A DNA stretch of 64,000 bases from a plasmid: sequence record NZ_CP016173.1; one strand, 5' to 3'. Positions 4,092 through 28,153 of this stretch are shown here, in pieces (position 1 is the first letter of the stretch; the number at the start of each line of letters is the position of its first letter). The translations under genes and the position numbers were made by a program. Below the pieces are notes generated by a model. The model made no database searches, had not been told where the DNA came from, and was given only the letters and a program-made list of their open reading frames with translations.

Positions 4092-4106
4092 GTAAACATT
4101 GCGTCA
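4092..4106 (+). promoter_or_regulatory. Variant copy of the recurrent motif GTAAACA[A/T]TGCGT[A/C]A upstream of the dotD-C-B-like operon
   Basis: GTAAACATTGCGTCA followed by TAATGG. Compare 23608-23622 and 28139-28153. Confidence 0.35.
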
Positions 4107-4387
4107 TAATGGCGTGAGCTGTGCGATTATAACGTGGTGGTATGAGTAGAAACCGCGTACGGAACAGTGTGACGACTGCGCGGGTACCGTGTGTCAAAAA
4201 AGCTGAGTTTTGATGCCAGGGCGTTGTCTGTGCGTCGAGAATGTGTAATGATTCGGCTGGGCTCGGAGCCACGGCCTTGTATGGCTGTGCCAGCGAACGG
4301 ACGCAAGGCGTGTCGTACGGTCTTTTGCGTTCGGCGATAAACCTTAGAAAATTGACGTTATACGTTCTTGAGTGGAGCCATTACATG

Positions 4388-4870
4388 ATCTGGAAGATAA
4401 GGCGAGCGTGGGTCGTCCTGGCGGTATTCCTCGGCGGATGCTCCTCACTCCGGCCTGGTGACGACGTGACCCCCGACGTGTACGCAAATCGCCTAATGGC
4501 GGACAAGATGGCGGTGGCCGCGGATGCTCAGCGGCAGTACGCCGCCCTAGTGGCGGAAGGCAAAGCGAGGGTTGAGCGTAAGCAAGAGATGCTGGAACTG
4601 GACCTCATCAACGTCGATTACATCGGCTTGCCCCAGGAGCTGCTCCAGACTCTCGCGTACCGGTACGGTTATCGGTACGTCGAGGTGGGGCAGCCCACCC
4701 AACTTCGCGCTATCAACATAAAGATGACGAGCGTGACCCCGACGGATGTGCTGCGTTCTATCGGGCAGCAGATTGACCGGCAAGCCGACGTGGTGCTGAG
4801 CATGCCGGCAAGGACTATCCGGCTCACCTACAAAACCCCGGTGCCAGCAGGCGGCAAAAAGAGGGGATAG
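4388..4870 (+). CDS. DotD/TraH-like T4BSS lipoprotein
   Basis: Start chosen at the internal Met giving MIWKIRRAWVVLAVFLGGCSS (signal peptide plus LGGC lipobox), about 160 aa. Sits directly upstream of DotC-like and DotB-like genes as in the dotDCB / R64 traHIJ arrangement. RBS GAGTGGAG lies upstream. Confidence 0.45.
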   Translation: MWKIRRAWVVLAVFLGGCSSLRPGDDVTPDVYANRLMADKMAVAADAQRQYAALVAEGKARVERKQEMLELDLINVDYIGLPQELLQTLAYRYGYRYVEVGQPTQLRAINIKMTSVTPTDVLRSIGQQIDRQADVVLSMPARTIRLTYKTPVPAGGKKRG

Positions 4871-4873
4871 GCC

Positions 4874-5821
4874 ATGCCGATGGATATGCCGCCCATGAGC
4901 CTGGAGCAGGCCCAGCGGCTCTATGAGGGGTCTGCTTACGTCGAAGTGGTGGATCAGTCTCGTGGTGGCAGCGCGGCGACCGCTGCCGCGCTCATGGCGC
5001 AGCAGAACGATGCCCAACGCGCACGGTCGCAGGCGCTTCTGGATACCGCGTTGGGCATCGGTGTCAAGGCCGGCATTGCCTGGCAACTGGACAAGATCCG
5101 ACGTGACGTGAAGGCCAACGAGCGAAAGCTGGACACGATCTACGACTTCGGCAATTTGATGATTCAGGGCCGGGTGGTGCCGCCCGTGATCGTGCAGGCG
5201 ACTGATCTTTATAACCAGGACGGCGATCTTACGCTTCGACTTTCTGGGGCCTATTACAAAATCGAGTCCCAGGCAAAGTTCGCTTCCGTAGCACCGTCTT
5301 GGCGTGGTTACCTGTCATTCCCGACTGCGGGGACGTTGCCCTCATCTTTCAACATGATCAAGCCCGCGACTTCGGCGGAAAAGAGTCTGTGGGAGCAAGG
5401 GGTCGCTGATGGTTGGCGTCAAGGAATAGAGCAGGCCGACATCATGCTGGAGCACTCGATGGACAGGCTCAATCGAGACTTCATAGGCATGCTTCGCTTC
5501 CACGAGTTTGTTCTGCAGGGGAAGATAACCATGCCGCTTATTGCGAGCGAGTCCATCCCTGTGACGAACAACGGCTCGACCATGGCGGTGGACGAGACGC
5601 TGTTGCGCATTACGGCGCTATCGGAGTTCGACGGCGATATGAAGAAATGGACGGGTCTCACGCCTTCGGCAGCGCCGAACAGCGATGTTCGCACACCGTG
5701 GATCACATCGGCGCCCCGTGCGGCGGCGCCGGCGCCTAGCAGCGCCACGGCCCAGACCTTTCCCGTAGTAGGGCAGGGGAGTTCAGTCCCGAGCGGGGTG
5801 GTGGATGGACACGACAATTGA
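4874..5821 (+). CDS. DotC/TraI-like T4BSS protein
   Basis: 315 aa, encoded between the DotD-like and DotB-like genes. The call rests mainly on conserved gene order plus size. No obvious N-terminal signal peptide was seen, so it is tentative. Confidence 0.4.
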   Translation: MPMDMPPMSLEQAQRLYEGSAYVEVVDQSRGGSAATAAALMAQQNDAQRARSQALLDTALGIGVKAGIAWQLDKIRRDVKANERKLDTIYDFGNLMIQGRVVPPVIVQATDLYNQDGDLTLRLSGAYYKIESQAKFASVAPSWRGYLSFPTAGTLPSSFNMIKPATSAEKSLWEQGVADGWRQGIEQADIMLEHSMDRLNRDFIGMLRFHEFVLQGKITMPLIASESIPVTNNGSTMAVDETLLRITALSEFDGDMKKWTGLTPSAAPNSDVRTPWITSAPRAAAPAPSSATAQTFPVVGQGSSVPSGVVDGHDN

Positions 5822-7004
5822 CAATGGCGGCGAACCTGGAGCGCTCCTGGAGCGGCTGGAGTGGAGGACCGCATATCGAGATCCGTTCAGGTTCCAAACC
5901 TCGGAGGACTTCAAGGCTCTGATGCTGGAGACCCTTGCGCAGGGGGCCAGCGATATCCTGATTCAGCCCGGATATCCGGTTTGTGCCGAAGTGAACGGAG
6001 GCCTCCGGGCTGTCAGTCACCGCGCGCTCGATGATAGCGAAGTGCGCGAAATCCTCGTCCTGTGCGCAAACCGCGATACAGCGTGGACCGATATCGTCGG
6101 TGGAACGGCAGTCAACACTCGGTATGAGGTCTTTGATCCAAAGCTACGTGATTTCCGGGGCGACAAGGTGCGGCACAAGTATCGCGTCAATGCGTCGCCG
6201 ATTGCATACCACGGGCAGACATCATGCCAAATAGTGATGCGAGCCATTGCGAAAGATCCTCCGGTTTATACGGAACTGGGGCTGACGGAAGACATTGTTC
6301 GCGCTGCATGTCCGGAGGACGGCATAGTGTACGTCGCTGGGCGTACTGGGTCTGGAAAGACGACCACCTTTGCATCGATTCTTCGCTTCATTCTTGAGAA
6401 TGACACGCCTATAAAAGGCAATCTAGTTACTCACGAAGAGCCGATTGAATTCACTTTTGAGTCGATCGCCAGCAAGCACTCGATAATTGTACAGTCCCAG
6501 ATCCCCACCCATTTTGCGGATTTTTACGCTGCCAACCGTGAGGCGATGCGGCGTAAGCCAGGCCTCATAATGATTGGCGAAATGAGGGATGAAGAGACAA
6601 TCCGTGCAGCGGTGGAAGCCTCACAGACCGGACATCCAGTATTCGGTACGGTGCACGCCACTAACGTCGCTTCTGTTGTGCGCAGGCTTATTTCCAGATT
6701 CCCTGAGGCTGAGCGCGCTACAGCGATCTACGACATTATCGAAAGCGCCCGCTTTATTATGGCGCAAACTCTAGTGCCGGGCGCAAATGGGCGTCGAGTT
6801 GCAGCGCGAGAGTGGTTGCAATGCGATCAGAGGGTTCGAGATGAGCTCATGGTCATGTCCGATATGGGGCGAGTGACGGGTACGCTCCGAGACATCATGC
6901 GGGCGCGGGGCTGGTCGTTCGTCCAGGAGGCCGACAGGTTGCTCGCAGATGGCGCCATCAGTGCCGCCACGGCGGCACAACTGCGTCAAAAAGCCGAGGC
7001 TTAG
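5805..7004 (+). CDS. DotB/TraJ-like secretion ATPase (PilT/VirB11 family)
   Basis: Walker A GRTGSGKTT; MIGEMRD (GE[IL]RD-type motif); His-box GHPVFGTVHATN. 399 aa. Overlaps the upstream gene, which suggests translational coupling. Confidence 0.8.
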   Translation: MDTTIDNGGEPGALLERLEWRTAYRDPFRFQTSEDFKALMLETLAQGASDILIQPGYPVCAEVNGGLRAVSHRALDDSEVREILVLCANRDTAWTDIVGGTAVNTRYEVFDPKLRDFRGDKVRHKYRVNASPIAYHGQTSCQIVMRAIAKDPPVYTELGLTEDIVRAACPEDGIVYVAGRTGSGKTTTFASILRFILENDTPIKGNLVTHEEPIEFTFESIASKHSIIVQSQIPTHFADFYAANREAMRRKPGLIMIGEMRDEETIRAAVEASQTGHPVFGTVHATNVASVVRRLISRFPEAERATAIYDIIESARFIMAQTLVPGANGRRVAAREWLQCDQRVRDELMVMSDMGRVTGTLRDIMRARGWSFVQEADRLLADGAISAATAAQLRQKAEA

Positions 7005-7157
7005 CGTCGGCGACGGACGACAGTGCGTGACAATGGTGGCAGACAGTGTTGACACGGCGGTTGTATCGCGCGATGTTGTGTGGTACGATCGCGCCACATG
7101 TCGCCTTGATAGTGTCAAGAGTGTGTAATCAATTTGATAAGGGTGGCGTGAGGAAGC

Positions 7158-7430
7158 ATGAATAAAGGCCGTTATCACTGGTCGAATTTGGCCCGAGAGG
7201 TTTTGTTCTTTGCTGTCCATTGGGCTGCTGCCGTGCCGTGGATTGTCCTGATTTTTTATCAGACCTGGACCATTTTCAGCGCGGCAATCCTGTCAGTCCT
7301 GGTGCTGTTTTACGTACGCTTCATTTCCAAAATGACGTTGCCTGCTGCATGGCGGTCTGTTTGGTACTTGATAAGTGGGCGTGAAAAAGCAACGAATAAC
7401 TGGTTTAAAGAATTTATTCGTCAACGATAA
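7158..7430 (+). CDS. Small two-TM membrane protein, IcmT/TraK-like by position
   Basis: 90 aa with two hydrophobic helices. Follows the DotB-like gene as traK follows traJ in R64. Preceded by an AT-richer intergenic region (7005-7157). Confidence 0.3.
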   Translation: MNKGRYHWSNLAREVLFFAVHWAAAVPWIVLIFYQTWTIFSAAILSVLVLFYVRFISKMTLPAAWRSVWYLISGREKATNNWFKEFIRQR

Positions 7431-7454
7431 ATAAACTGCGAAGGGTAGGTACAT

Positions 7455-8462
7455 ATGGGCAAGGTAAGTGTTGTCGGCGTGGATGATGGCCACTACGCGA
7501 TCAAGGTGGTCCTGGAGAACGGGACGACTTTTTCTGTGCCGTCGCGCGGCCGCGCGGGGCGCCATATGATTTCCTGGCAAAGCGACGAGGCTGGCCTGTA
7601 CAAGACGGAAGAAGGTCATGATTTCACGGTGCACGAGCATCTTGAAGGCACCGACGACACGAGGTTTGCAGACTACCCGCGCTCGCCTCTGAATCGGGTG
7701 TTGGTCCATCACGCTTTGCGCAAAGCGGGCCTCTCTGGTAAAGATGTGTCCATCGCTACTGGGTTGCCGGTGTCCTATTACTACCTGGCCGATGGGCAGC
7801 GTAACGACGCACTGATCCACGCCAAGCAGGAGAATCTGCGCAAGAAGGTGAGCAGCGGTGGGCAGCCTATGGCGAACATCGTAAAGAACGTGGTGACCAC
7901 GGAAGCGATTGCTGCCTATTTCGATCAACTCATCGATATGGACGGTTCCCCTTCCGAACAGTTCGAGACTCTCAACGATTCCGTGGTCGGCGTCATCGAT
8001 ATCGGCGGAAAGACGACCGACTGCGCCGTGATCTTCCCCGGTGGACAGCAGGTGAATACGGAGCGTTCGGGTTCTAACGATGTTGGCGTTCTCAGTCTTT
8101 ACAGTGCTATCGAGTCGAGGCTGCGGTCGCAATTCGACTTGGACAACGTTCCCCCGCGAATAATCGAACATGCAATCAAGACGGGAACGGTCAAGCTTTC
8201 GGGACAGGTCGAGGACGTACGAGAGTTGTTGGTCCGCGAGAAGGAAAACCTGGCCGAACAGATTATGGCTGGTGTGCGTACCAAAATCGGCTCCGGGAAA
8301 GACTTGGATTCGGTTTTGTTTGTCGGCGGCGGCGCAATCGTGATGGAGGATCAGTTGAAGAAGTATTTCCCGCATCACCGTTTCGCCAAGCAGCCCGAGT
8401 TCGCGAATGCGCGTGGGATGTTCAAAATCGCCAAGTACGTTTTCGGCAACGAGGGTGAGTAA
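7455..8462 (+). CDS. ParM/StbA-like actin-type plasmid segregation ATPase
   Basis: Phosphate-1 motif VGVDDGHYAIKVV; phosphate-2 motif GVIDIGGKTTDCAVI; adenosine motif VLFVGGGA. 335 aa. Confidence 0.7.
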   Translation: MGKVSVVGVDDGHYAIKVVLENGTTFSVPSRGRAGRHMISWQSDEAGLYKTEEGHDFTVHEHLEGTDDTRFADYPRSPLNRVLVHHALRKAGLSGKDVSIATGLPVSYYYLADGQRNDALIHAKQENLRKKVSSGGQPMANIVKNVVTTEAIAAYFDQLIDMDGSPSEQFETLNDSVVGVIDIGGKTTDCAVIFPGGQQVNTERSGSNDVGVLSLYSAIESRLRSQFDLDNVPPRIIEHAIKTGTVKLSGQVEDVRELLVREKENLAEQIMAGVRTKIGSGKDLDSVLFVGGGAIVMEDQLKKYFPHHRFAKQPEFANARGMFKIAKYVFGNEGE

Positions 8463-8463
8463 G

Positions 8464-8679
8464 ATGGCGAGCAAACCGCTGAGAACCGGCGTGTTGCTTG
8501 CTCCACGCTACCCAGTGGAACGCGATGCAATAGCTCTGCTCAAGGCCGTACCCAGCGGGGAGCGCACAACGTTTTTGCGCTCGCTGGTTTTGATCGGCTA
8601 CAACGATCTTCGTAAAGATCGCGAGCAGGCACGTGAGCGCGTCCAACAACCCAACCGAACAGGGAGCGATCGTGACTAA
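8464..8679 (+). CDS. Small basic protein downstream of parM-like, possible ParR/StbB-like adaptor
   Basis: 71 aa starting MASKPLRTGVLLA, 1 nt after the ParM-like stop. Called from position only. Confidence 0.3.
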   Translation: MASKPLRTGVLLAPRYPVERDAIALLKAVPSGERTTFLRSLVLIGYNDLRKDREQARERVQQPNRTGSDRD

Positions 8680-9250
8680 TCAAGCCGCAAAAAAAGAGCG
8701 GTTCGAGATCCGATTGCGGGCCAATATCGCGGCCGAGGCGGATTTGCTGGCAGAGCTTGAGGCCCGGGATGGCGTATATGGGGGCAAAACCGAGCTGCTT
8801 CGAGAATGCCTACGGCGGGGGTTTGTCGCGCTACGCACGGCTGTCGATAAGCAGCCTGCTGACGCCACGGAAGAATCGATCCTTGACGCGTTGGCTTCAA
8901 CTTTTCCGACAGGCGAATATAGCTACCGAATCGGCAAGCTATACCTGGATGCAAGGGAAGCGGTTACTCACGGTACGCCTATGGAGCCGTCGGCGTCAGA
9001 CGTGACCCGGGATAACCGGGATGACCAAACTCGCAGCCCTGAGAGCGCCTTTCCTGCTTCAGAACTAGCAGAGGCCTCGTCACCTGCAGGCCCGGTGCCC
9101 CAACCTGAGGCGCCTGTATCGGCGGACTCGCCTGGCCCTGTGCAGGCATCAGAGCCCAGCGATAACCCGAAGCCAAGGCCTCCAGCGGTGGATTGGGGTC
9201 GGCTGCGCGGAATTGCGGGGCGTGAAGATGATGGAACGGAGAACAGGTAA
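8633..9250 (+). CDS. Hypothetical protein with a charged N-terminal helix region and a Pro/Ala/Ser-rich low-complexity tail
   Basis: 205-aa ORF. True start is uncertain; a GTG at about 8692 is possible. N-terminal ERFEIRLRANIAAEADLLAELEAR could be a ribbon-helix-helix or relaxosome-accessory fold (speculative). The C-terminus is acidic and proline-rich. Confidence 0.3.
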   Translation: MSASNNPTEQGAIVTNQAAKKERFEIRLRANIAAEADLLAELEARDGVYGGKTELLRECLRRGFVALRTAVDKQPADATEESILDALASTFPTGEYSYRIGKLYLDAREAVTHGTPMEPSASDVTRDNRDDQTRSPESAFPASELAEASSPAGPVPQPEAPVSADSPGPVQASEPSDNPKPRPPAVDWGRLRGIAGREDDGTENR

Positions 9251-9262
9251 AGCGCGGTAGAC

Positions 9263-9293
9263 AGGCCCTCAAGCGTGCTTGAGGGCCTTTTTT
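9263..9293 (+). terminator. Rho-independent terminator
   Basis: AGGCCCTCAAG-cgtg-CTTGAGGGCCT (perfect 11-bp stem) followed by TTTTTT. Lies between the 8633-9250 gene and the next gene. Confidence 0.7.
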
Positions 9294-9304
9294 GGATCTT
9301 GAGC

Positions 9305-10588
9305 ATGGCAACAAGCAAGTCCCAAGGGACAGACCGGACATTCCAATTCAGCGATCCAGCAGCCGTAGCCGGAATCATCGTTATGGTGATTGCCGCCGTA
9401 TGGATCGCATGGTATTTCGCACATACGCAAATCAGCGCGCTGTATGTATACGTGCGCTATGCAGAGGTGTGGGTTTTGAATTTGGCGGGCGCTTTTTTCA
9501 ATCTGCCCGGTATTTCGTCTGCTCACAATTGGGTGCAACGGGTATGTGCGCCCGAGAGAACTATTCTGCTATGTACGCGGGATTTTTCAACGCTTAGTTG
9601 GGGAGAAATCACTTCTTCATCCATGGTCTTTAATGGTCTATGCGTCATTATTCTCGGCGGTTGGTGTTTTCGCATGTTTCGCCAAGTGTCCCGCACCCAC
9701 CCCGGCTTTCGATTTACCAAGAATCACTCCATTAAGTCGTTCGTGAAAGAAAATGCCGCGCTGTACCCCCATCTAAAGCTTGTGGAGAGGCTAGACTTGG
9801 TAGCCAAGCCGCTTGCCGATCCGCTCTTTGGCATGAGCCTCACGTCTCGGCAATTTGCGTACAAACACCGCCTTATCAGCGGGTGGCAAAAAATGGCAGA
9901 TGGCCAGTATGTGCCCGTTTTGAACCGGGAGGCTGCTACGGCGGTATTTCTCGCGCAGCTCGGCCCTCATTGGACTCGTTCTGCGGATCTGACGCCTGGG
10001 GAGACGCTATTGCTCGCAATAGTCCTCCCACGGGTAGCTGCGACAGACCCCCGTATGGATGATGCGGCATTCAAGAATGCGATGGCCGATAGTGATGGTC
10101 TCATCAAGTGGTGTTGGGACCACTTCACGTCGTCGGTGGAGCGCCAGGGCAGAAAGCGGGAGAGCGGCGATGACGGCTATGCATGGTTGCGGCCTGCATT
10201 TGATCTGTCCTATCCCAGGCAAATAATCGCGCGCTATCTGATGCACCCGGAGGTAAAGCAGATCATCGAGCAGCATGCATTCCGCAGGACAATTCTGTAT
10301 GCGTGCTATGTCCGCGCAAGTGCCCTCGGCGTATTTCCGCCTGCGGACGTGCGATGGCTGCGGTTTTACGATCGGGAGCTCTGGTACCTACGCAGCAGCA
10401 TCGGCAGGCAGGTGGCTTTTGCGGAAGGCGGCTCGGCCGTCTATTGCCACTACCTATACGAAGCAAAAGCGGGCTGCGCCATCGTTGAGCCCCAGCTCGA
10501 CAAGGCCGTGAGCGGGCTGGAAGCTGCCATGCACGGGTTCCGCTACACCGAAGCCGACAAGAAGGCGTATGAGGAAGCCAGGGGATAA
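9305..10588 (+). CDS. Membrane protein, possibly DotM/IcmP/TrbA-like (tentative)
   Basis: Start moved to the ATG at 9305, downstream of the terminator; the ORF-track start at 9275 would include the terminator. N-terminal TM helices, about 427 aa, immediately upstream of the DsbC/TrbB-like gene as trbA precedes trbB in R64. Confidence 0.3.
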   Translation: MATSKSQGTDRTFQFSDPAAVAGIIVMVIAAVWIAWYFAHTQISALYVYVRYAEVWVLNLAGAFFNLPGISSAHNWVQRVCAPERTILLCTRDFSTLSWGEITSSSMVFNGLCVIILGGWCFRMFRQVSRTHPGFRFTKNHSIKSFVKENAALYPHLKLVERLDLVAKPLADPLFGMSLTSRQFAYKHRLISGWQKMADGQYVPVLNREAATAVFLAQLGPHWTRSADLTPGETLLLAIVLPRVAATDPRMDDAAFKNAMADSDGLIKWCWDHFTSSVERQGRKRESGDDGYAWLRPAFDLSYPRQIIARYLMHPEVKQIIEQHAFRRTILYACYVRASALGVFPPADVRWLRFYDRELWYLRSSIGRQVAFAEGGSAVYCHYLYEAKAGCAIVEPQLDKAVSGLEAAMHGFRYTEADKKAYEEARG

Positions 10589-10669
10589 ACGATTCGCTCT
10601 TTTGGTGATATGATCGGGCGGTTTTGTTAGAATTGTGAAACCGCTGATTTCTGACGAGAGAATAGAATC

Positions 10670-12226: not shown

Positions 12227-12501
12227 TGCCGGTGGTTGAGCCTTCCCTGCAGGGGGATTTCGGCCTGATCTCGGTCGCCGAGCGTGTCCAGTGGCGTGAG
12301 GCCTTGCCACGCCATTTACTGGGCGCCATGAAGCAGCGTGATGGGAGCGCACTCCCGGCCTGGAAGGTCGCAGAGCATATTCAGCCCACCCTGATCACGA
12401 TTCACGAATTGTTCAATACCGCCCCTCTCGCAACCTTGCACACGCTTGAAGAGTATTTCTCACCGGCCTCTCTCGCGCATCGGAGTGACTATGCATCCTG
12501 A
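12223..12501 (+). CDS. Hypothetical protein
   Basis: 92-aa ORF whose start overlaps the previous stop (ATGA), consistent with coupling. Confidence 0.3.
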   Translation: MMPVVEPSLQGDFGLISVAERVQWREALPRHLLGAMKQRDGSALPAWKVAEHIQPTLITIHELFNTAPLATLHTLEEYFSPASLAHRSDYAS

Positions 12502-19021: not shown

Positions 19022-19046
19022 TCCAAGAAATGTCGGTGGAACCATC

Positions 19047-19888: not shown

Positions 19889-22594
19889 TTGCCCAAAAGG
19901 TTTGAACCTATGCCGACATCTCGCAATCAACAGGAAGGGTTTGCACGTCGAGCTCGCCGTATACGAAGCGTGAGCGCCCTAGTACTTCTCGCGTTCGCAG
20001 TCCAAGGCTGCACCGCGCCGCTGACGGGCACCCGCCTCCAGGCTGCTCCCCCAAGTGCAGCGCTCCCGGGGCAGCCTTCCTCGGCGGCAGATCCCCTTGG
20101 CAACGTCATGCCGCATCGTGTGCTTCCCCAAGAGACATCTCCCAATCAGGCGATGTCGGAGGCGAGCGCCCGAAGACAGTCTCAACAGGGAGGGGCGATT
20201 AATCTGGAAGGACAGACGATCGATATGGCTGGAAGTGGCCGCTCTGGCGCGGCCCAGTCATTCGTATCGGGCTTGGCCGTATCTGGGGCTCAGAAGGCCA
20301 TGCAAGACTGGCTGAATCAGTTCGGCACGGCACGCCTGGGGCTGGATGCGGGGTCTTTTCACGGTGGAAGCCTCGACATGTTATTTCCGCTGTACGACGC
20401 CAAGAAATCGTCGCTGATTTTCAGCCAGGTGGGGGTGCGCCGTAACGATCGGTTCACGGACAGCTACCGAACCACCGTCAATGTGGGCCTTGGGTATCGC
20501 CATTTCTTCGACAAGGTGATGTTGGGGGCCAACGCCTTCTACGATGCGGACGTGACGCGAGGGAATCGGCGGTATGGCCTGGGCGCGGAGGTGTGGGCCG
20601 ACTACCTCAAGCTCAATGCCAACGGGTACTTCCGCACGAGCGGCTGGAAGAAGTCGCCTGACATGGACAACATGCTGGAGCGACCGGCTAACGGCTTTGA
20701 CCTCCGCGCTGAAGGCTATCTGCCGCAATTACCTCAGGTGGGTGCCAAGCTCATCTACGAGAAATACTATGGGCACGATGTCGGGCTTTTTGGATCACAT
20801 GATCGCCAAGAAAACCCCTCAGCCTGGACAGTCGGGCTGACGTACACCCCGGTGCCGGCGATGACCTTCGGTATCGAGCAGCGCATGGGGCAAGGCGGTC
20901 GTAATGAGACGGCCTTAACTATTGGCATGCGGTATGCGATCGGTGTGCCGCTGAACAAGCAGTTTGCGTTCAATGAAAATGCGGTGGCGGCGAGCCGCAA
21001 GCTGAAGAATATGCGCCAGGATCTGGTTGAGCGCAACAATGACATCGTGCTGGAATATCGGCAGGATCGCATCATCGGCGTACAGCTGCCAGGCACTGCG
21101 AGCGGTATTGAAGGATCGCAGCTTACGTTTCCAGTGAATTTGGTAGCCAACAAAGGTACGCCACAAGTTCTGTGGTCGGGCTCAGCCGCAGGTTTTGCGT
21201 TGCCTTACGGTGGATCGGGTAGCGGAATCCTGACGCTGCCGGCATACAACCCGAACGGCAATAACACATACCAGCTCGTGGCAACGGCGGCCGAAGGGAC
21301 ATACAAAGTTCAATCCAATGCGATGACCATCACGGTGAACGCGGCGCCCGTGGCCGCTTTGCGCGTTATGCTGGAGCGCAGCAAAGCCGTCGCATCGGCC
21401 GATGGCACCGACGCGGTGACATTCACGGCCACCGTGAAAGACAGTAAAGAGCAGCCAGTGGCCGATACCGCGGTTGCCTGGAAAGTGACCAAGGGAACTG
21501 CATCGTTCAAGTCCTTGGCACGAACGACGAATCGTAATGGCCAGGCTGCGGCCGTCGTGACGAGTTTGAAAGCGGACGACGTTGCCGTGCAAGTCACGCT
21601 CGCGGATGGTACAGCGGCCCAAAGTGACACACGCTTTTCGGTCGATACGGCAAGCGCTGCGGTCATTCAGTTGGACGGCGCCCCGTCCACGCCTCAAGTT
21701 GCAAACAGCACCGACGTGTTGACGCTTAAGGCCACCATCAAGGACAAATCCGGCAGTAATGTCGGCGCGGGCATCGTCGTGCATTGGCATGCTGACCGGG
21801 GTGTACTAAGTGCGGCCTCGTCTCTGACAGATGACAACGGGGTGGCAGTGGTCAATTTCACCGCGCCCTCTACTGTCGGCGATGTGCATGTGACGGCAAC
21901 CGGCGCGGCGGGCGATCCCGGCAAGATGGCGACAATTACGTATGTAGCGGACCTGGCAACCGCCACGGTGGCGCAGTTAGATGGCGCACCAGCTGGCAGT
22001 CAGCCTGCTAATGGATCGGATGTCGTGACGCTGCAGGCCACGGTCAAAGACAGGAACGGCAACCCCGTAGGGCCTGGCGTTGCCGTGAGCTGGAGTACCG
22101 ACATTGGCACGTTGAGCGCCGGAACCTCTTCCACCGATGGCGACGGGAAGGCTCAAACGCGGCTGAAGGCGCCGTTGTCTGCAGGTACTGCCCACGTGAC
22201 GGCAAAAGCCGCAGCGAGCGATGCAGGCAAGACGTTAGCGATTGAATATGTGCTGGATTTAAATTCCGCACGCGCTGAGATTACTGACGTTTCGGAAAAT
22301 TGGGACCAGGGCGACTTCAGCAGCCGGTACTGGGACATCACGGTCAAAGCATGGGATGTCTCAGGAGACGTGAAAGCGCCGGGCGCGACAGTCACCTTCT
22401 CGTCCACCAGCGAGGGTAACTTCATGACGCCTGTTACTGTAATCGCAAGTGGATCGGGCAAGGCAAGTGCACTATTCCGAATCCCTTCGGGCGATCTAGC
22501 ATGCGGGGACTCAAGGTCTGCCACCCTTACAGTCAAGGCGTCGGCCAGCGATCCGGGCGTTACCAGGGTTCTTACGGCATTCGGTGACTGCTGA
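19889..22594 (+). CDS. Invasin/intimin-family inverse autotransporter adhesin with tandem bacterial Ig-like (Big_1-type) domains
   Basis: N-terminal signal peptide, then an intimin/invasin beta-barrel-like region (…VNVGLGYRHFFD…, GLTYTPVPAMTFGIEQRMG). At least four roughly 95-aa repeats of pattern DGxDAVTFTATVKD…G.PV…V.W…G follow. 901 aa; the true start may be the internal Met (MPTSRNQQ). Confidence 0.7.
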   Translation: MPKRFEPMPTSRNQQEGFARRARRIRSVSALVLLAFAVQGCTAPLTGTRLQAAPPSAALPGQPSSAADPLGNVMPHRVLPQETSPNQAMSEASARRQSQQGGAINLEGQTIDMAGSGRSGAAQSFVSGLAVSGAQKAMQDWLNQFGTARLGLDAGSFHGGSLDMLFPLYDAKKSSLIFSQVGVRRNDRFTDSYRTTVNVGLGYRHFFDKVMLGANAFYDADVTRGNRRYGLGAEVWADYLKLNANGYFRTSGWKKSPDMDNMLERPANGFDLRAEGYLPQLPQVGAKLIYEKYYGHDVGLFGSHDRQENPSAWTVGLTYTPVPAMTFGIEQRMGQGGRNETALTIGMRYAIGVPLNKQFAFNENAVAASRKLKNMRQDLVERNNDIVLEYRQDRIIGVQLPGTASGIEGSQLTFPVNLVANKGTPQVLWSGSAAGFALPYGGSGSGILTLPAYNPNGNNTYQLVATAAEGTYKVQSNAMTITVNAAPVAALRVMLERSKAVASADGTDAVTFTATVKDSKEQPVADTAVAWKVTKGTASFKSLARTTNRNGQAAAVVTSLKADDVAVQVTLADGTAAQSDTRFSVDTASAAVIQLDGAPSTPQVANSTDVLTLKATIKDKSGSNVGAGIVVHWHADRGVLSAASSLTDDNGVAVVNFTAPSTVGDVHVTATGAAGDPGKMATITYVADLATATVAQLDGAPAGSQPANGSDVVTLQATVKDRNGNPVGPGVAVSWSTDIGTLSAGTSSTDGDGKAQTRLKAPLSAGTAHVTAKAAASDAGKTLAIEYVLDLNSARAEITDVSENWDQGDFSSRYWDITVKAWDVSGDVKAPGATVTFSSTSEGNFMTPVTVIASGSGKASALFRIPSGDLACGDSRSATLTVKASASDPGVTRVLTAFGDC

Positions 22595-22609
22595 GTTCGC
22601 CCCGGTTTA

Positions 22610-22633
22610 TAGGCCGGTCCTGGGACCGGCCTA
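22610..22633. terminator. Perfect palindrome (hairpin) between convergent genes, possible terminator
   Basis: TAGGCCGGTCC-tgg-GACCGGCCTA with no flanking T-run. Confidence 0.35.
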
Positions 22634-22768
22634 CGCGCCTTGTTTGCGAGGGGATCGAAAATGCACCAGGTGCACCAGACCAATTTCTGAAGGTGCGGGG
22701 CGGCAGCGGCTATGCCGCGCCACATCACAGCGGTGGAGTGCTTCCGGCAAAGATAGGGCGTTCGCCCA

Positions 22769-23542
22769 CTACATGCCAGCCGACAAGCTCTCCGTCTTGT
22801 CTTCCTGGGCCATGACCAGCAGATCGGCGATAAATTGCCTTGTCTTAGGCAAATATCGGTCGAAGGTGGGGTCGAGATCAGGCGCCATCTTGATGGTGCC
22901 TTGTTGGAGGCCCTTATCCACCTCACGGGCATACTTTTCCGCGAACAGCTCCCTGGCATGTTGTGCCTGGGGCGTGTTTTCGCGCGTCAATTCCTCTAGG
23001 ACGCCTCCGACGGCCGAGACGAAGACCATGGTGCGGTTGTATTGCCAGAGCTGATCTGCGTACTGCTGGGTGCGCTCCCTATAGCTGGCATCTAGTTCTT
23101 TCACCTGCTGTTGCAGCTTCTCGTTCGCGCTCCGAAGCGAGATGATGAGCTCCCGCAGGCTGGTATCGGCTTTGCGAAGCAAGCCGTTCTCTTGGCGTAG
23201 CCGCTGATTCTCCTCTTCCATTGCGGCAACTCGCGCTTCCAGGGCGTCGATTATCTTGGCTTGCTTGTCCAGCTCTGCCTTCAGGCGCTCTTTGTCGGCG
23301 ACATGCTGTGCAGTGAAGGCGAGCTGCTGACGCAACCGATCATTCGCTTCCCGGACTGCCTCGTCCCACCCCTCTTGACGACCTTGAGCATACGCTTGGT
23401 CTGCTGCCACAGTCGCCTCCTCAGCCAGCCTGCGCAGCTCCATGGCATGGCCCGCATCAGATGCCAAGGCATGCTGATAGGATCCGATATAGGACGTATT
23501 GCTGCGATTGCCGCCGCCTGCCGGGATGCCGTTGTTGATCAT
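22769..23542 (-). CDS. Hypothetical coiled-coil protein
   Basis: 257-aa ORF. The central region is strongly heptad-like and rich in E, R, Q, L and A. Confidence 0.4.
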   Translation of the reverse strand: MINNGIPAGGGNRSNTSYIGSYQHALASDAGHAMELRRLAEEATVAADQAYAQGRQEGWDEAVREANDRLRQQLAFTAQHVADKERLKAELDKQAKIIDALEARVAAMEEENQRLRQENGLLRKADTSLRELIISLRSANEKLQQQVKELDASYRERTQQYADQLWQYNRTMVFVSAVGGVLEELTRENTPQAQHARELFAEKYAREVDKGLQQGTIKMAPDLDPTFDRYLPKTRQFIADLLVMAQEDKTESLSAGM

Positions 23543-23607
23543 GTCGCGTCCTTGTGCACGAGAGGTGAGTGCAAATTGTACTGCGGATAGTGTGCGGCGT
23601 TAATGTG

Positions 23608-23622
23608 TAAACAATGCGTAAA
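23608..23622 (+). promoter_or_regulatory. Copy of the recurrent 15-mer GTAAACAATGCGTAA
   Basis: Exact 15-mer also found at 28139-28153; the local context is GTAAAC-AATGC-GTAAAC. Lies between two minus-strand genes. Confidence 0.35.
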
Positions 23623-24225
23623 CTACGCGGCGCCTGACTTCTGCACAACTACCCGCTCTGCGGCCAGCACCGCCTTGTCGGTTGACAAGCCGAATGACGC
23701 CGCGCGGGCGAGTGCAGCTGGCACCCAGTCGGAAAATCGGCTGTCATCCAGCACAGACCGAAGCGCGAGCAAAGGGACGCAGTGTTCGACCGACGCGTCC
23801 ACGTAAAACAGGGCGAACCATTCTGGGATAAGCCACCGCTGGTCGTCATGCTCTTCGATCGAGAACGGAATGGCAAGCAGACCCGGCATGGAGGCAAGCT
23901 TGGGGCTTTGAAACCCTTGGCACAGCCAGTACGCAACCAGGTCCAGCTCACCCGCCTGTATAGGCACTAGCGCGATTACTTGGCGCGAGGTGGAACGGAC
24001 GTAGATCCCTGGCGCCAGTGCAAGGCTCGCGTCCTCGGTCGCCTGATACGGGAGCCTATCCATGAAGTGCCGGAGCAGCCCAAGCATCTCGGCCGCCACG
24101 GGAATGTCCTGGGCGACATGGGGATTCGATTTTCCCCCCATCAGTGCCAGTACAGATCCCGCCTCTGCGGCCTCGGCGACATCAAGCAGGTGCAGCAGCT
24201 CATTACGCATGGGGTTCTCGGTCAT
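23623..24225 (-). CDS. Hypothetical protein
   Basis: ORF 23623-24465; the probable start is the internal Met (MTENPMRNELL) at 24225, overlapping the stop of the upstream membrane-protein gene. Confidence 0.35.
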   Translation of the reverse strand: MTENPMRNELLHLLDVAEAAEAGSVLALMGGKSNPHVAQDIPVAAEMLGLLRHFMDRLPYQATEDASLALAPGIYVRSTSRQVIALVPIQAGELDLVAYWLCQGFQSPKLASMPGLLAIPFSIEEHDDQRWLIPEWFALFYVDASVEHCVPLLALRSVLDDSRFSDWVPAALARAASFGLSTDKAVLAAERVVVQKSGAA

Positions 24226-24731
24226 GCCAACGCGGGATGGTTTCGCAGGCTCAGGGAAACCGCCCAGCGCACGATGAAAGACCAGATGAGCCCTACGACA
24301 AGGGCTGTAGGAACCAAGGCCAAGAACGCCAGGATCCGGTCCTCCATGCTCAGTGCAGACACAAACATGACCGGGCACCACACAAAACAGGCCGTGATGA
24401 TAGGCATAACCAACAGGCGCCGCCCCACGTCGGCGTCGCGGGGGCTCGTCCCCAGGCAGAACCACACGAAGCCCACCATGTAGGCGGGCGAGTATAGGAA
24501 AGCCAGGATGAGATAGGCAAAAGACGCAATGCCAGTGGCTTTCAAGGCGCCTGTGAAATCACTCGGCACGACCTGTTGACCGATGATGGCCGTGGCCACC
24601 ACAAAGGCCATCACAGCGAGGAGGATGGGCAAGGATAGAAGCCATAAGGCGCGGCGCCGGAAGCTGCGCTGAAAAGCCGCATTGCGACCCGTAGTGTATA
24701 TCGTGGAAACGAACTGGCGTTGCGCAAGCAT
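24222..24731 (-). CDS. Hypothetical integral membrane protein (about 4 TM helices)
   Basis: 169-aa hydrophobic ORF. The AT-rich region upstream (24732-24830) carries direct repeats of TTCTAAC. Confidence 0.4.
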   Translation of the reverse strand: MLAQRQFVSTIYTTGRNAAFQRSFRRRALWLLSLPILLAVMAFVVATAIIGQQVVPSDFTGALKATGIASFAYLILAFLYSPAYMVGFVWFCLGTSPRDADVGRRLLVMPIITACFVWCPVMFVSALSMEDRILAFLALVPTALVVGLIWSFIVRWAVSLSLRNHPALA

Positions 24732-24833
24732 GCGGGCCTCGATATGGTTAAAAATGTTTTTCTAACACCCAATTCTAACCAAACCAACAGATTTATTGTG
24801 TTTCCGTAGCAACTTTCTCCGGGGCGGCGCGGC

Positions 24834-24861
24834 AAAAAAAAAGCATCCGGGCAGGATGCTT
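24834..24861 (-). terminator. Rho-independent terminator for the minus-strand TA/integrase transcript
   Basis: On the minus strand: GCATCC-tgccc-GGATGC followed by TTTTTTTTT. On the plus strand this reads as an A9 run 24834-24842 then hairpin 24843-24859. Confidence 0.65.
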
Positions 24862-24982
24862 TAAGCGAAAGGGCAACACGTTGGCATGCAGCGCATTGCA
24901 GAGGCACAGCTTACCATGTGGCTTCACCCTCAAAGGCCACTGCGCTGACGCGCTTCGCTTGTCGCCTTGCCAAAGTAGCGCG

Positions 24983-25276
24983 CTACTTCGCCAAGGTCCG
25001 GGGAGGGTACTCTTGTCGGGCGTGCAGCACCGATAGGACTTCGACGTAATCGGCCTGGACGCGATAGATGACGATGTAGTTGGGGTGCGCCACGATCTCC
25101 CGCGTGCCCGGCACCCGGCCGCGTTTGAAGATGTACGGGTGGTCCGCAACGGGATGCACGGCGCTTTCAATCAGCTCATGGATGGTGATGGCGGCATACA
25201 CATCGAACTCTGCGATGTGGTCCGTGATGCGATCCAAATCATCGAGCGCGGGCGCACTCCAGAAGATGGGAAGCAT
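24983..25276 (-). CDS. RelE/ParE-family type II toxin
   Basis: 97 aa. C-terminal IVIYRVQADYVEVLSVLHARQEY is typical of RelE/ParE. Preceded by a small antitoxin-like ORF. Confidence 0.7.
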   Translation of the reverse strand: MLPIFWSAPALDDLDRITDHIAEFDVYAAITIHELIESAVHPVADHPYIFKRGRVPGTREIVAHPNYIVIYRVQADYVEVLSVLHARQEYPPRTLAK

Positions 25277-25308
25277 GACCTATCGGGCTACCCGGCGGGC
25301 AGGTAAAG

Positions 25309-25521
25309 TCATGCCTGCGAAGGCGCTATGGGATTGCTTTCCGCATCTGCCAGCTTCGCGGCAAGTTTTTGACGAATCAGCGCCATAGCCTCGTCGTGCG
25401 GGATGCTGGGCCGAGGGTCGTCAAGACTGGCTTGCACCTTCGCACGGAACCAGCGGTCATAGCTATCCGCTTGTTCTTGCGTCTCGAACTCAGAGACTAT
25501 CGGGGAGAGGGCAGTGCTCAT
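25309..25521 (-). CDS. Putative antitoxin partner of the RelE/ParE toxin
   Basis: ORF 25309-25593; the probable start is the internal Met (MSTALSPIV), about 70 aa. Small and charged, 32 nt upstream of the toxin gene. Confidence 0.5.
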   Translation of the reverse strand: MSTALSPIVSEFETQEQADSYDRWFRAKVQASLDDPRPSIPHDEAMALIRQKLAAKLADAESNPIAPSQA

Positions 25522-25619
25522 GGCAAGCTCCTTGTGTCTCTTCATTTTAAGGCATTCCGGGGATGATAGGGGCCCCCGCTCCCCGGCCTGCATGGAGGTT
25601 TCACGCCATTCTGGGCCAG

Positions 25620-26750
25620 TCAGGGCAGGGCGCCAAGGTTGGCTTGCAGGTCGGCCAATTTCTGGGCATCTTCCTGGCGCTTGCGGTCAATCGTCTTGGC
25701 GTAGATCCGTGTCGTGCGCGGGTCGGCATGCCCTAGCTCGTCTTGGGTCGTTTCAAGCGAGGCTCCCGCTGCCAGGCGGTGGGTGGCATTGGTATGTCGC
25801 ATCCAATGCGTGGTCATTCGCATGACTTGGCTGCGGATGTGCTCATCCGGACAGTCGCCTGCGGCCGATTTTGCCAATTCGTGCACGATCAAGCCGATGG
25901 AGCGAGGCGTCAAGGCCCGCGAACGGGCTCCCACGTTGATTGTCGCCACGAGTGGGATGTTCTCGCCAGGCAGCGGGAAATCTGCCAGGCCCCAGCTTTT
26001 TCGGTAGCGCATGAGCTCCTGCAGCAAGCTGGAATTCACGGCCACCATGCGCTCTTTTTGCCCTTTGCCAATGACGCGCAACAGCCAGCCGCTGTCCGTC
26101 CGTAAGAAATCTCCCATCACGCCGTTGGCCGCTTCTTCACGGCGCAGTCCGGCATGGTAGAGCAGGGCGAATAGCCATCTGGCGCGAGCGGCGACCGCGC
26201 GGTCGCGTGTGCTGCGCTCCGGCCGGTTGCACACCCAATCCCAAAGCCAAAACCAGCTATCGAGGTGCAGAGCTCGTTGCTGCCGCTCCGAACTGATAAC
26301 AGCAGGCTTCATCGACAGCTTGAACACGTTGAATTGCAGATAGCCCGCGTCCTGCAGGTATGAGCACATGCCGCCTAGAATCGTCCTGGTCTGGGCTATC
26401 GAGGCTGATGATAGCGGCGCCGCGAGCACCTGCGTTGGTGCTAGGACAACACCGCGCGGCGGCTTTCGAGGCCGGAGCCAATGAGCTGGAGGATTGGCCA
26501 GGTGGGCGTAGAACAGATGGGCGTGGTCCACCTTCATTTCCTTAAGCGACAGGCCGTTCTCGCCTAGCCACAGCAGTAGCCTGATGGCTTCACGGCGGTA
26601 CGCGTCAAAGGTGTTCGCGGTGCGACTGCCCTTGGCCCTGATCCAGACCGCAGCCGCCTGGGCATCTGTTTGGACGCCCAGGGCATCGCCAACCGCCTGA
26701 TCGGCACCAGGCGCAAGCAAGCGTCCGGGATCCAGTTCGGCCAAATTCAT
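25620..26750 (-). CDS. Tyrosine integrase / site-specific recombinase (XerC/XerD-like, int2)
   Basis: 376 aa. LRREE (box I Arg); HWMRHTNATHRLAAGASLETTQDELGHADPRTTRIYA (box II H..R..H, GH, catalytic Y). Confidence 0.8.
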   Translation of the reverse strand: MNLAELDPGRLLAPGADQAVGDALGVQTDAQAAAVWIRAKGSRTANTFDAYRREAIRLLLWLGENGLSLKEMKVDHAHLFYAHLANPPAHWLRPRKPPRGVVLAPTQVLAAPLSSASIAQTRTILGGMCSYLQDAGYLQFNVFKLSMKPAVISSERQQRALHLDSWFWLWDWVCNRPERSTRDRAVAARARWLFALLYHAGLRREEAANGVMGDFLRTDSGWLLRVIGKGQKERMVAVNSSLLQELMRYRKSWGLADFPLPGENIPLVATINVGARSRALTPRSIGLIVHELAKSAAGDCPDEHIRSQVMRMTTHWMRHTNATHRLAAGASLETTQDELGHADPRTTRIYAKTIDRKRQEDAQKLADLQANLGALP

Positions 26751-26953
26751 TGCGTGAGAGTCCAGGTACCATCGGACGAGAGCCGCACGACGGTGGGGGT
26801 GTCAACGCCCTCGATAGTGACTCGAAACCATTCAGCACGACCCGGGACCGTGGGGTCAAGCGCCCAGCTTTGTCCGCGCCCATCCGCTGCCACTGCATGT
26901 TTTGCCAAGGCCGCTGCGGCTTCCTCTCCAGTCAGCGTTTTTTTCTTCATGCT
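26747..26953 (-). CDS. Small hypothetical protein immediately upstream of int2
   Basis: ORF 26747-27001; the probable start is MSMKKK. Its stop overlaps the int2 start (ATGA). Position is compatible with an excisionase or accessory role, but no HTH was recognised. Confidence 0.3.
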   Translation of the reverse strand, partial: SMKKKTLTGEEAAAALAKHAVAADGRGQSWALDPTVPGRAEWFRVTIEGVDTPTVVRLSSDGTWTLTQ

Positions 26954-26979
26954 CATCTCCAACAGACCGACATTGCCGC

Positions 26980-27843
26980 TCATGCGGCCTCGGGTTCCCA
27001 TGCTTCGAGCTTCTTTTCTAGAAAAGGGATCTCTCTTTTAAGCCCCGCAATTTCGCCTTCCAATTGAGCCACGTGACGGCGGAACGCCTGGGGCCAGAGC
27101 GGATCATCACGAGTGACCCTTTCGAGAGGTCCGTTGTACATGCGTTTCACGAGCAAAAATTCGGGATGCGTCCCTCGGCTGTCATAGGCACGGGTGGCGG
27201 TCGCAAGTTGCGCGTGCAGGGTCGAGATCAGCCATTCCAGTCCTTCGCTGGAGACCTCAAGTGGCTTGAATTGGATGCCAGGGCAGCTGGCCGTCTGCCA
27301 ACCGGAGCCAGGCCGCTCGTAGCCGTGATGAGCCATGGTTCCTCGCTGCACGGCAATACGGCGGAAGCATACCGGGCAGGTTTTGACGACCTTGTTGGGG
27401 TTCACCGGCTTGGACGGTGCCAGGCTCGGGGCTCGCCCTTTGACCACCTTATTTTTAAGGGACGCAACAGCCTCTGAAAGGGGCAACACCTCGGCGCAGA
27501 AGGTTCGCATCGCGTCCACGGCTGGCCCTGACGCTTTCGACCTGCTGACCTTCTTGCTCGTAGAGATGATGTCGTGCAGCCCCATAACCATGATGCTGTT
27601 GTAGAGCAGCCGCACGTCTTCCGGGTGGGATTCCCATTTTCCATAAAAAAAGGGCTCGCTCACGTGCAGCTTCCACGCCTTGTCGACAATCCGCGAGAGG
27701 GTTTCCTTGGCGTCGCGCCATACGACATTCCGAATGGAGCCTGCCTCCACCCCAGCTAGTACCTGTTCCACAGCCATATCGAACCGACTGGGATCCGCCA
27801 AGGAGTCGCGAAGGATGGGGAACTGCCGTGGAGTCATGAGCAT
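26980..27843 (-). CDS. Hypothetical protein with a Cys cluster (CPVC…C)
   Basis: 287-aa ORF, first gene of the minus-strand unit leading into int2. Confidence 0.4.
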   Translation of the reverse strand: MLMTPRQFPILRDSLADPSRFDMAVEQVLAGVEAGSIRNVVWRDAKETLSRIVDKAWKLHVSEPFFYGKWESHPEDVRLLYNSIMVMGLHDIISTSKKVSRSKASGPAVDAMRTFCAEVLPLSEAVASLKNKVVKGRAPSLAPSKPVNPNKVVKTCPVCFRRIAVQRGTMAHHGYERPGSGWQTASCPGIQFKPLEVSSEGLEWLISTLHAQLATATRAYDSRGTHPEFLLVKRMYNGPLERVTRDDPLWPQAFRRHVAQLEGEIAGLKREIPFLEKKLEAWEPEAA

Positions 27844-28027
27844 GTCCTTTTTCTAGGCTGGAGCGGAGGGGTCGCATCCCGCTGATTTTGTTCCACGGGA
27901 ATCTCGCGAGTCCGCATCTATCGCTTCAACCCATTGAAAACTAAAAAGCTTTTGGGATTTCATCGACATTGAGGCCGTGGAACATTTTCGTTGTCGGCGA
28001 CCTGCCGCCGACCATCACCCCCGATAT

Positions 28028-28051
28028 TTCCCATAATAACAGTTATGGGAA
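28028..28051. promoter_or_regulatory. Perfect inverted repeat TTCCCATAA-N6-TTATGGGAA
   Basis: 9-bp arms with a 6-bp spacer in the divergent intergenic region between the int2 unit and the plus-strand small-gene array. Confidence 0.35.
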
Positions 28052-28101
28052 GAAGAGCGCAAGAGAAGTACCAAAATGAACCATGTACGTTCATATATGT
28101 A

Positions 28102-28153
28102 TTGACATCGGGCCGGAGCGGGCTCACAATGCCAATACGTAAACAATGCGTAA
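28102..28153 (+). promoter_or_regulatory. Sigma70-like promoter (TTGACA-N17-CACAAT) followed by the recurrent 15-mer GTAAACAATGCGTAA
   Basis: TTGACA at 28102-28107 and CACAAT at 28125-28130. The motif at 28139-28153 would lie at or just after the transcription start. The downstream gene starts at 28170. Confidence 0.4.

Follow-up and report, generated by a model that had tools for sequence, protein, structure and literature searches.

Introduction

ParR proteins bind direct repeats, two 11-bp repeats being required by the ParR of plasmid R1 (PMC9426499). In the IncW plasmid R388, StbA acts as centromere-binding protein and repressor in one, linking stability with conjugation, and its stbDR sites are built of 9-bp repeats with 2-bp spacers, giving an 11-bp period, in groups of 2, 3, 5 or 10 units at five promoters (bioRxiv 10.1101/2022.04.29.490116; PMC3098194). 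Here we analyse a 64,000-nucleotide stretch of sequence record NZ_CP016173.1 (hereafter the window), which is identical to part of Bordetella flabilis GCA_965137895.1 contig CBCSCL010000020.1 (118,710 bp), a Dot/Icm-type (mating pair formation type I, MPF-I) conjugative plasmid, and describe arrays of a direct repeat with the same 11-bp period at its promoter regions. Judging from sequence, we read these arrays, with a probability of roughly 55%, as operator- or centromere-like sites bound by a plasmid-encoded protein, most likely one or both of two small ribbon-helix-helix (RHH)-like proteins, RHH1 and RHH2.

Small or single regulators with several plasmid targets have been described elsewhere. 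ArtA of plasmid pSK41 is reported to be an RHH-motif master regulator of the pSK41 transmission genes (PMC2777438). The MtvTA system of the Pseudomonas aeruginosa plasmid pPAD8 supplies one plasmid-encoded repressor, which binds the dotA, dotD, icmP and icmL promoters (PMC11826091).

Results

A 15-bp motif spans two adjoining units of an 11-bp direct repeat

The degenerate 15-mer GTAAACAWTGCGTMA has exactly three matches in the window, each on the plus strand: GTAAACATTGCGTCA at 4092–4106, and GTAAACAATGCGTAA at 23607–23621 and 28139–28153. All three were listed in a first-pass annotation of this DNA, made from the letters alone, which set the middle one a single nucleotide too far right (23608–23622). 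Its description of a GTAAAC-N5-GTAAAC direct repeat within the middle copy (23607–23623), of two minus-strand genes flanking that copy, and of the 4092 copy standing upstream of dotD-dotC-dotB is correct, the 4092 copy falling within the array that we call A1. The third copy does begin 8 nt after a TTGACA-N17-CACAAT promoter, as proposed there, but precedes the ATG at 28170 by 16 nt and not 17. Rather than recurring at many random positions, the pattern is confined to these three sites: no additional copy with up to three mismatches was found in the window, and three matches never arose in 100 dinucleotide-preserving shuffles. A fourth AACATTGCGT, at 54854 on the minus strand, lies inside a gene without array context and was treated as chance. 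A single exact 15-mer pair is unremarkable in this window of 58% G+C, where six direct repeats, and several inverted ones, are exact over 15 nt or more; because such pairs are common, the case for function rests on context and conservation.

The 15-mer comprises the end of one unit and most of the next unit of a direct repeat with an 11-bp period, the consensus of which is approximately AATGCGTAAAC in the window and the family core of which is A-W-K-G-Y-G-K. Arrays of 3–6 such units, all intergenic and all on the plus strand, occur at five promoter regions (Table 1). Three of these regions precede transfer operons, the arrays standing ahead of the icmL operon, ahead of dotDCB and in the gap between dotB and icmT-parM; the other two precede a coiled-coil gene and, directly after the promoter of a small-gene array, the operon of small genes, a gene for an 1120-amino-acid (aa) protein and a KfrA-like gene.

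Several scans of the window point to this period in particular. For GCGT-N7-GCGT, 5 of 11 matches were scored as intergenic, compared with 0–2 at other spacings, although one (55964) actually lies inside an open reading frame (ORF) missing from the gene list used; RYGT-N7-GCGT has 10 intergenic matches, compared with 0–3 at other spacings. A three-unit position weight matrix (PWM), tuned to the window motif, reached at least 14 bits at nine positions at period 11, compared with 0–1 at periods 8–14, and added arrays A0, A1b and A1c, which are absent from the first-pass annotation. Tandem Repeats Finder (TRF) returned a period of 11 at 23602–23623 and 28133–28153, and also at 1987–2007 within A0, where a lag-11 scan (1968–2016) and a PWM triple score of 17.5 (1988–2016) agree with it. 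Looser repeat units stand near A1c at 7020–7052, and a fifth unit of A2 reaches the upstream gene and overlaps its stop codon.

Two other identities for the repeats were considered and set aside. Integration host factor site and palindrome readings of the 15-mer, made by eye, gave partial matches (8/15 positions self-complementary), while the direct-repeat register accounts for all sites. Replication-origin iterons, that is 17–22-bp repeats by a rep gene, do not fit a period of 11 bp in arrays dispersed at promoters with no rep gene near them in the window.

Three of the arrays abut or overlap predicted promoters

All three copies of the 15-mer abut or overlap sigma-70-like promoters. A1 occupies the spacer and the −10 hexamer of CAGACA-N17-CATAAT (4082–4110). 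A2 lies across the −35 hexamer and the spacer of a minus-strand promoter, TTAACG-N17-TACAAT (23603–23575), which belongs to the coiled-coil gene at 22769–23542. A3 begins 4 nt past the −10 hexamer of the TTGACA-N17-CACAAT promoter and so covers the predicted transcription start. Conservation of the −35 region of that promoter, CATGTACGTTCATATATGTATTGACA, extends to the DNA level in L003/L004, pSP13-1, L021, L022, L023 and L024 (L numbers are our handles for the sequences compared).

A palindrome, TTCCCATAATAnCAGTTATGGGAA (window 28029–28052), lies about 50–75 bp upstream of the −35 hexamer of the same small-gene-array promoter and is likewise conserved at the DNA level across lineages, with counterparts in L003 (9385–9408) and L021–L024 and a degenerate, imperfect form in pSP13-1. 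A second regulator, binding as a dimer, probably uses it as its site.

Table 1. Repeat arrays, associated promoter and genes of the transfer and ParM-like module in the window.
Feature	Position	Strand	Description
IcmL	803–1579		Dot/Icm transfer system
A0	1966–2031	+	About 6 units, CCAGCGCAAAC TTGGCGCAAAG AACGCGTATTG AAAGCGTATGT AGTGCGGGATC TACGCGCAAGT; gap upstream of the minus-strand icmL/dotI operon
A1	4087–4141	+	5 units, AGAGCGTAAAC ATTGCGTCATA ATGGCGTGAGC TGTGCGATTAT AACGTGGTGGT; includes the 4092–4106 copy; PWM 17.2 and 15.9
A1b	4218–4250	+	3 units, AGGGCGTTGTC TGTGCGTCGAG AATGTGTAATG; between A1 and the dotD start (4385); PWM triple 18.3; GCGT-N7-GCGT at 4221
DotD	4385–4870		Dot/Icm transfer system
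DotC/TraI	4874–5821		Dot/Icm transfer system
DotB	5805–7004		Dot/Icm transfer system
A1c	7098–7141	+	Weak, irregular, ATGTCGCCTTG ATAGTGTCAAG AGTGTGTAATC; dotB/icmT-parM gap, a parC-like position; PWM 16.2
IcmT-like	7158–7430		Dot/Icm transfer system
ParM-like	7455–8462	+	Actin-type ATPase gene in the Dot/Icm operon, after icmT
RHH1	8464–8679	+	71 aa, reads KPLRTGVLLAPRYPVERDAIALLKAVPSGERTTFLRSLVLIGY; directly after parM in every lineage
RHH2	8672–9250	+	192 aa, second candidate; N-terminal strand-helix-helix-like pattern (ERFEIRLR...), variable linker
A2	23580–23623	+	4 units, ACTGCGGATAG TGTGCGGCGTT AATGTGTAAAC AATGCGTAAAC; includes the 23607–23621 copy; PWM 21.5–25.2, the window maximum
Promoter	28102–28130	+	Sigma-70-like, TTGACA-N17-CACAAT; serves the small-gene array, the 1120-aa gene and the KfrA-like operon
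A3	28134–28166	+	3 units, AATACGTAAAC AATGCGTAAGC AGAGAGTGATC; includes the 28139–28153 copy; PWM 14.8

Cognate arrays occupy syntenic positions in related plasmids

The window was compared with eight other plasmid lineages of 40–70% protein identity and nearly identical gene order, among them plasmids of Pseudomonas syringae (pSP13-1), Xanthomonas, Aeromonas/Stutzerimonas, Achromobacter and Castellaniella together with several metagenomic contigs. All eight carry cognate period-11 arrays at syntenic positions. The exact degenerate 15-mer is missing from relatives, but the homologous promoter carries a diverged cognate motif instead, and the diverged arrays stand at the same positions as in the window. 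The core has drifted among lineages, from GCGT in the window to TGTGG in pSP13-1, TGGTG/TGTGG in the Aeromonas type and GGTG/GCGT in Xanthomonas, and is uniform at all sites within one plasmid; such a concerted change within each plasmid is what is expected of sites read by one protein. In a lag autocorrelation that uses no motif, run on three intergenic regions of the type IV secretion system (T4SS) genes, lag 11 or 22 came out on top in 9/9 lineages (z 2.4–5.6). A megablast of window positions 22–30 kb against PLSDB gave no match.

In the complete pSP13-1, TGTG[GT]-N6-TGTG[GT] has 23 occurrences at period 11, every one of them intergenic, compared with 0–1 at each other period from 6 to 16, and ATTGTGK is intergenic in 28 of its 43 matches in a plasmid of which 12% is intergenic DNA. 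By protein synteny, the array loci of pSP13-1 at 18.8 kb (18788–18916), 21.3–21.5 kb (21284–21471), 24.3–24.5 kb (24321–24461), 39.1 kb (39073–39145) and 48.2 kb correspond one-to-one with A0, A1, A1c, A2 and A3; a sixth array, at 615–663, comes directly after a gene for a helix-turn-helix (HTH)-domain protein near repA. Counterparts of A1 are far longer than the window array, with about 14 repeat units upstream of dotD in pSP13-1 and stretches of 10110–10380 in the Aeromonas plasmid L006 and about 4260–4420 in the Xanthomonas plasmid L012. Those of A1c are strong and form two clusters, both in pSP13-1 and in L006 (13170–13274).

At site 2, the position of A2, the array is kept in the window and in all five other lineages checked (L021–L024 and pSP13-1), and the unit AATGTGTAAAC is identical between A2 and its pSP13-1 counterpart. 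At site 3, the position of A3, the array stands at a fixed offset from the −10 hexamer in six of seven lineages (the window, L021, L022, L024, pSP13-1 and the Aeromonas type), unlike the promoter spacer, which is not conserved across lineages; no site 3 array is evident in L023. The units themselves vary: ACCGT-N6-CGCGT-N6-CGAGT in L021, four units in L022, GGCGTAAACATTGCGTTTAAAAGGCGT in L024, four of the form ATTGTGG/AGTGTGT in pSP13-1 and three in the Aeromonas type. In pSP13-1 a TTGACA-N17-TAGAAT promoter is followed by ATTGTGGttag ATTGTGGcgtt ATTGTGGtagg AGTGTGTaagg, and site 3 of L024 reads GGCGTAAACATTGCGT, the same as site 1 of the window. The suggestion that the motif is a shared operator or promoter-proximal element, one of two offered in the first-pass annotation, is thereby supported and extended, since its copies touch sigma-70-like promoters, belong to 11-bp arrays and have syntenic counterparts in eight other lineages.

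All five window arrays share one absolute orientation, as do five of the six pSP13-1 arrays, regardless of the direction of the neighbouring genes.

RHH1 resembles ParR and is, with RHH2, a candidate binder

The ParM-like gene matches the NCBIfam ParM model with E=2e-20, below the curated equivalog cut-off, and is 65% identical to a pSP13-1 gene annotated as 'ParM/StbA family protein'. The identical gene in L013 carries recorded Pfam hits to StbA_N, ParM_N and MreB-like_C, the first of these names referring to the ParM of NR1. Every array-bearing lineage has kept parM, RHH1 and RHH2. In all relatives the three genes (window 7455–9250) stand between icmT and dotM within the Dot/Icm operon.

RHH1 was aligned with ParR using an R1 ParR query that is 100% identical to genes annotated beside parM in more than 1000 plasmids. 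With a three-sequence profile of R1/IncL-M ParR, hhalign aligned 39 columns in the same register at a probability of 82.8% (E 9.3e-6); with R1 ParR alone the probability was 35% (E 4e-4). Sequence searches of the PDB with both RHH profiles returned nothing meaningful. RHH2 ends in an invariant C-terminal W-x-R-x-R-x-x-AG motif in an alignment of 19 homologues; its sequence pattern suggests that it may be an RHH protein, and it could act as an adaptor contacting ParM.

A covariation between an RHH1 strand residue (Ile versus Ser/Asn/Gly) and the core base (T versus C) was considered and rejected, as L017, L019 and L020 have the polar residue yet carry GTGT units.

Alternative explanations

Several observations weigh against our main reading. 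The match between RHH1 and ParR spans the two helices only, and Pfam Plasmid_stab_B is hit weakly, by 2/7 RHH1 members with a best E of 0.0059, below the Pfam threshold. RHH2 has no match in the Pfam, PDB sequence or ParR-profile comparisons, and its AlphaFold2 monomer is of low confidence (predicted local distance difference test, pLDDT, 52.6), with helices at 20–31 and 40–59. The predicted beta-strand residues of RHH1 and RHH2 are not in step with the core sequence. A consensus sigma-70 promoter was looked for at A0 and at A1c and not found. The window arrays are short and degenerate relative to those of pSP13-1, and the PWM was tuned with knowledge of the window motif, which leaves its period specificity and the newly found arrays as the independent evidence. 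Finally, the extra pSP13-1 array by the HTH-protein gene hints at another possible binder.

The last point leads to the strongest competitor, in which the arrays are operators of some other plasmid regulator, be it an HTH protein, an R388 StbA-like, KfrA-like or H-NS-like protein, or a toxin-antitoxin (TA) antitoxin comparable with MtvA of pPAD8, and the ParM/RHH module has nothing to do with them. We regard this as somewhat unlikely. Besides the HTH-domain gene of pSP13-1, which has no homologue in the window, it can point to the lack of covariation between RHH strand residues and the repeat core, and to the KfrA-like protein, the H-NS-like protein and the PaaA2/ParE pair all being encoded in the window; the TA pair, however, is missing from most array-bearing lineages, and an 11-bp-phased G-rich core is not read by H-NS-type proteins. 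The precedent of pPAD8, where a MazE-like antitoxin represses the dotA, dotD, icmP and icmL promoters through an operator, TAACATTGTTA, that shares AACATTG with the window motif (PMC11826091), cuts both ways, as pPAD8 itself has no arrays and showed no lag-11 signal upstream of dotD (our sole negative control). Of the small DNA-binding-like proteins, we saw only RHH1 and RHH2 co-occurring everywhere with the arrays, and RHH1 resembles ParR.

It is very unlikely that the repeats resemble one another without a sequence-specific function, whether as products of chance, as remnants of a duplicated promoter, as phased bendable DNA or as an RNA element of the 5′ untranslated region (UTR). Chance is suggested by how common exact 15-mer pairs are in the window and by how short and degenerate its arrays are, but the window shows period-11 specificity and intergenic restriction, pSP13-1 shows both very strongly, and array positions are conserved across nine lineages despite diverged surrounding intergenic DNA. 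A-rich spacers (AAAC) are indeed phased at about one helical turn, as bendable DNA would be; conservation, however, falls on the G-rich core rather than on the A-tract. Transcription would place site 3 in a 5′ UTR; an RNA element is nevertheless hard to reconcile with A0 and A2, both in antisense orientation to the genes in front of which they lie, and Rfam gave no matches on window 1–30 kb.

That site-specific integration of a 4.5-kb int2/TA module left the 23607 and 28139 copies behind as att-like direct repeats, the other suggestion of the first-pass annotation, has next to no chance of being right: identical direct 15-mers do flank a block with a tyrosine recombinase gene (25620–26750, Pfam Phage_integrase) and a ParE/PaaA2 pair, but the recombinase, its neighbours and the coiled-coil gene lie between the site 2 and site 3 equivalents in all eight other lineages examined (L001/L003/L004, pSP13-1 and L021–L024), with no empty site among them, similarity between the two copies ends after 22 bp (19/22 identical, equal to two units) with flanks at background level (14/40 and 9/43), the 11-bp units recur at three further loci and thus are not unique to the block ends, and int adjoins neither copy. 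For annotation this removes a false lead, the int2 block being backbone in every relative examined and not an integrated module.

The ParE toxin and PaaA2-type antitoxin pair (24983–25593) is found in this plasmid only, relatives holding different small genes in its place, and is the sole variable cargo inside the conserved int block.

Other features of the plasmid

In addition to the transfer genes of Table 1, the Dot/Icm set includes DotM and further transfer genes; other genes of the window encode invasin-like, EAL, tyrosine recombinase, ParE/PaaA2, KfrA-like and H-NS-like proteins and the 1120-aa protein. The last (29972–33334) has no Pfam domain and is a widespread, uncharacterised plasmid protein, with full-length homologues of 42–66% identity in 1318 PLSDB plasmids, mostly from Klebsiella, Enterobacter and E. 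coli; a search of genome contigs with it returned three loci only, two of them the same element. A KfrA-like gene (33612–34610), annotated 'DNA-binding protein' in pSP13-1, follows the 1120-aa gene in this plasmid family. The H-NS-like gene lies at 38734–39069 (Pfam Histone_HNS, E 9e-15), and the Castellaniella relative also has one. An exact 30-bp tandem duplication, GCCCGATGATCATGAAGTGCTGGGGGCCAT in two copies at 35086–35145, overlaps the start of a minus-strand ORF (34670–35182).

Between a 381-aa gene and dotD, an exact 14-bp inverted repeat (IR), TCCCGTTACTTCCC at 3682–3695 and GGGAAGTAACGGGA at 3879–3892, has its arms about 185 bp apart, with a second IR, TGTACAC ... GTGTACA, nested within the pair. 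Its core, CCGTTACT...AGTAACGG, recurs at a spacing of 199–220 bp in all nine lineages (including L006, L007, L012 and L016–L020), the inner sequence not being conserved, and in the Xanthomonas and Aeromonas plasmids the gene next to it bears a site-specific integrase annotation. The pair may be an oriT, a recombination site or an invertible switch. As to inversion of the segment, three assemblies of the same plasmid are identical, and the inner sequence is too diverged for orientation to be compared across lineages.

Discussion

Our data are consistent with the following mechanism. A plasmid-encoded protein would bind the arrays cooperatively, with one subunit or dimer per helical turn along a single face of the DNA. 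Because A1–A3 overlap −35 or −10 hexamers or the transcription start, we propose repression: protein bound at these arrays would occlude RNA polymerase, and transfer and maintenance genes would in this way be co-regulated. The likeliest binder would be RHH1, which resembles the N-terminal domain of ParR, and/or RHH2 with its conserved C-terminal tail, both encoded right after the ParM-like gene; a ParR-like protein is the best candidate because of the RHH1-ParR match, the 11-bp period of parC and the contrast with pPAD8. The locus would then be a ParMRC-like module inside a Dot/Icm operon, with parC-type repeats dispersed over several promoters and a possible role in segregation.

A bolder version, which we think quite unlikely, would build ParM and two ParR-like proteins into the Dot/Icm operon as integral components, with centromere-type repeats spread to all major transfer promoters, so that one nucleoprotein complex couples segregation or positioning, transfer repression and perhaps delivery to the T4SS. 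Here the largest array would adjoin the universally conserved IR structure upstream of dotD, with its possible roles as oriT or invertible switch. If true, such a complex would be the ParMRC counterpart of the balance between stability and conjugation struck by StbA/StbB.

To our knowledge, almost nothing is known of the regulation of Dot/Icm-type conjugative plasmids beyond IncI and IncM. Plasmids of this kind are found in Bordetella, Achromobacter, Pseudomonas, Xanthomonas, Aeromonas and Stutzerimonas, and a putative operator that is conserved and easily recognised defines a concrete, testable regulon made up of the icmL, dotD, icmT-parM, coiled-coil-gene and maintenance-operon promoters, with two uncharacterised small proteins, RHH1 and RHH2, as candidate master regulators. 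Should the link to ParR be true, a partition adaptor would serve as global repressor of a type IVB secretion system, tying vertical inheritance to horizontal transfer.

Among described plasmids, pPAD8 shares the T4SS type and the operon layout (dotDCB-icmT-parM, icmL...). Its icmT-parM pair is present but followed by another protein, without RHH1 or RHH2, and 22-bp iterons lie beside its rep gene. Repression there is the work of a MazE/AbrB-fold antitoxin that has a palindromic operator, and the authors of that study saw no motif common to the target promoters (PMC11826091). With ArtA of pSK41 the likeness is that of a small RHH protein acting as global regulator of plasmid genes; pSK41 has a Gram-positive host, and ArtA is separate from the pSK41 ParR. 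We found no description of the present arrays in the literature searched, a limited collection that makes this weak evidence of novelty.

Resemblance to R388 lies in arrays of at least two direct repeats with an 11-bp period at several promoters (five window arrays, six pSP13-1 loci). The R388 repeat, TTGCATCAT, is unrelated in sequence to that of the window, and StbA differs in being an HTH protein without an NTPase partner that represses leading-region genes and not T4SS structural operons. R388 has a P-type T4SS. No StbA homologue was identified in the window, where no search with the R388 StbA sequence was made.

With the ParR-parC system of R1/NR1 (StbB, Pfam Plasmid_stab_B) the locus shares 11-bp direct repeats that overlap a promoter, R1-type parC (L028) giving a TRF period of 11 in two clusters flanking its promoter, and an actin-like ParM gene directly followed by a small gene, in the window a putative RHH-type one. 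In sequence terms, a repeat array upstream of parM, as in parC, is found in the dotB/icmT-parM arrays, weak in the window. Both have G-rich cores on one strand, TGGGT/TGGTG in R1 and TGTGG/TGGTG/TGCGT in the window family, which we take as a lead only. Unlike in R1, the parM and parR-like genes here follow icmT within the Dot/Icm transfer operon, the RHH-like genes number two where R1 has one, the repeats occur at five or six promoter regions including those of T4SS operons instead of at a single parC, the window array beside parM is the weakest of the five, and the similarity of RHH1 to ParR is remote, below the Pfam threshold. By analogy, then, the layout is closest to R1 ParR-parC and R388 StbA-stbDR; what sets it apart is a par module within a type IVB transfer operon, with two RHH-like genes and with repeats at the T4SS promoters themselves.

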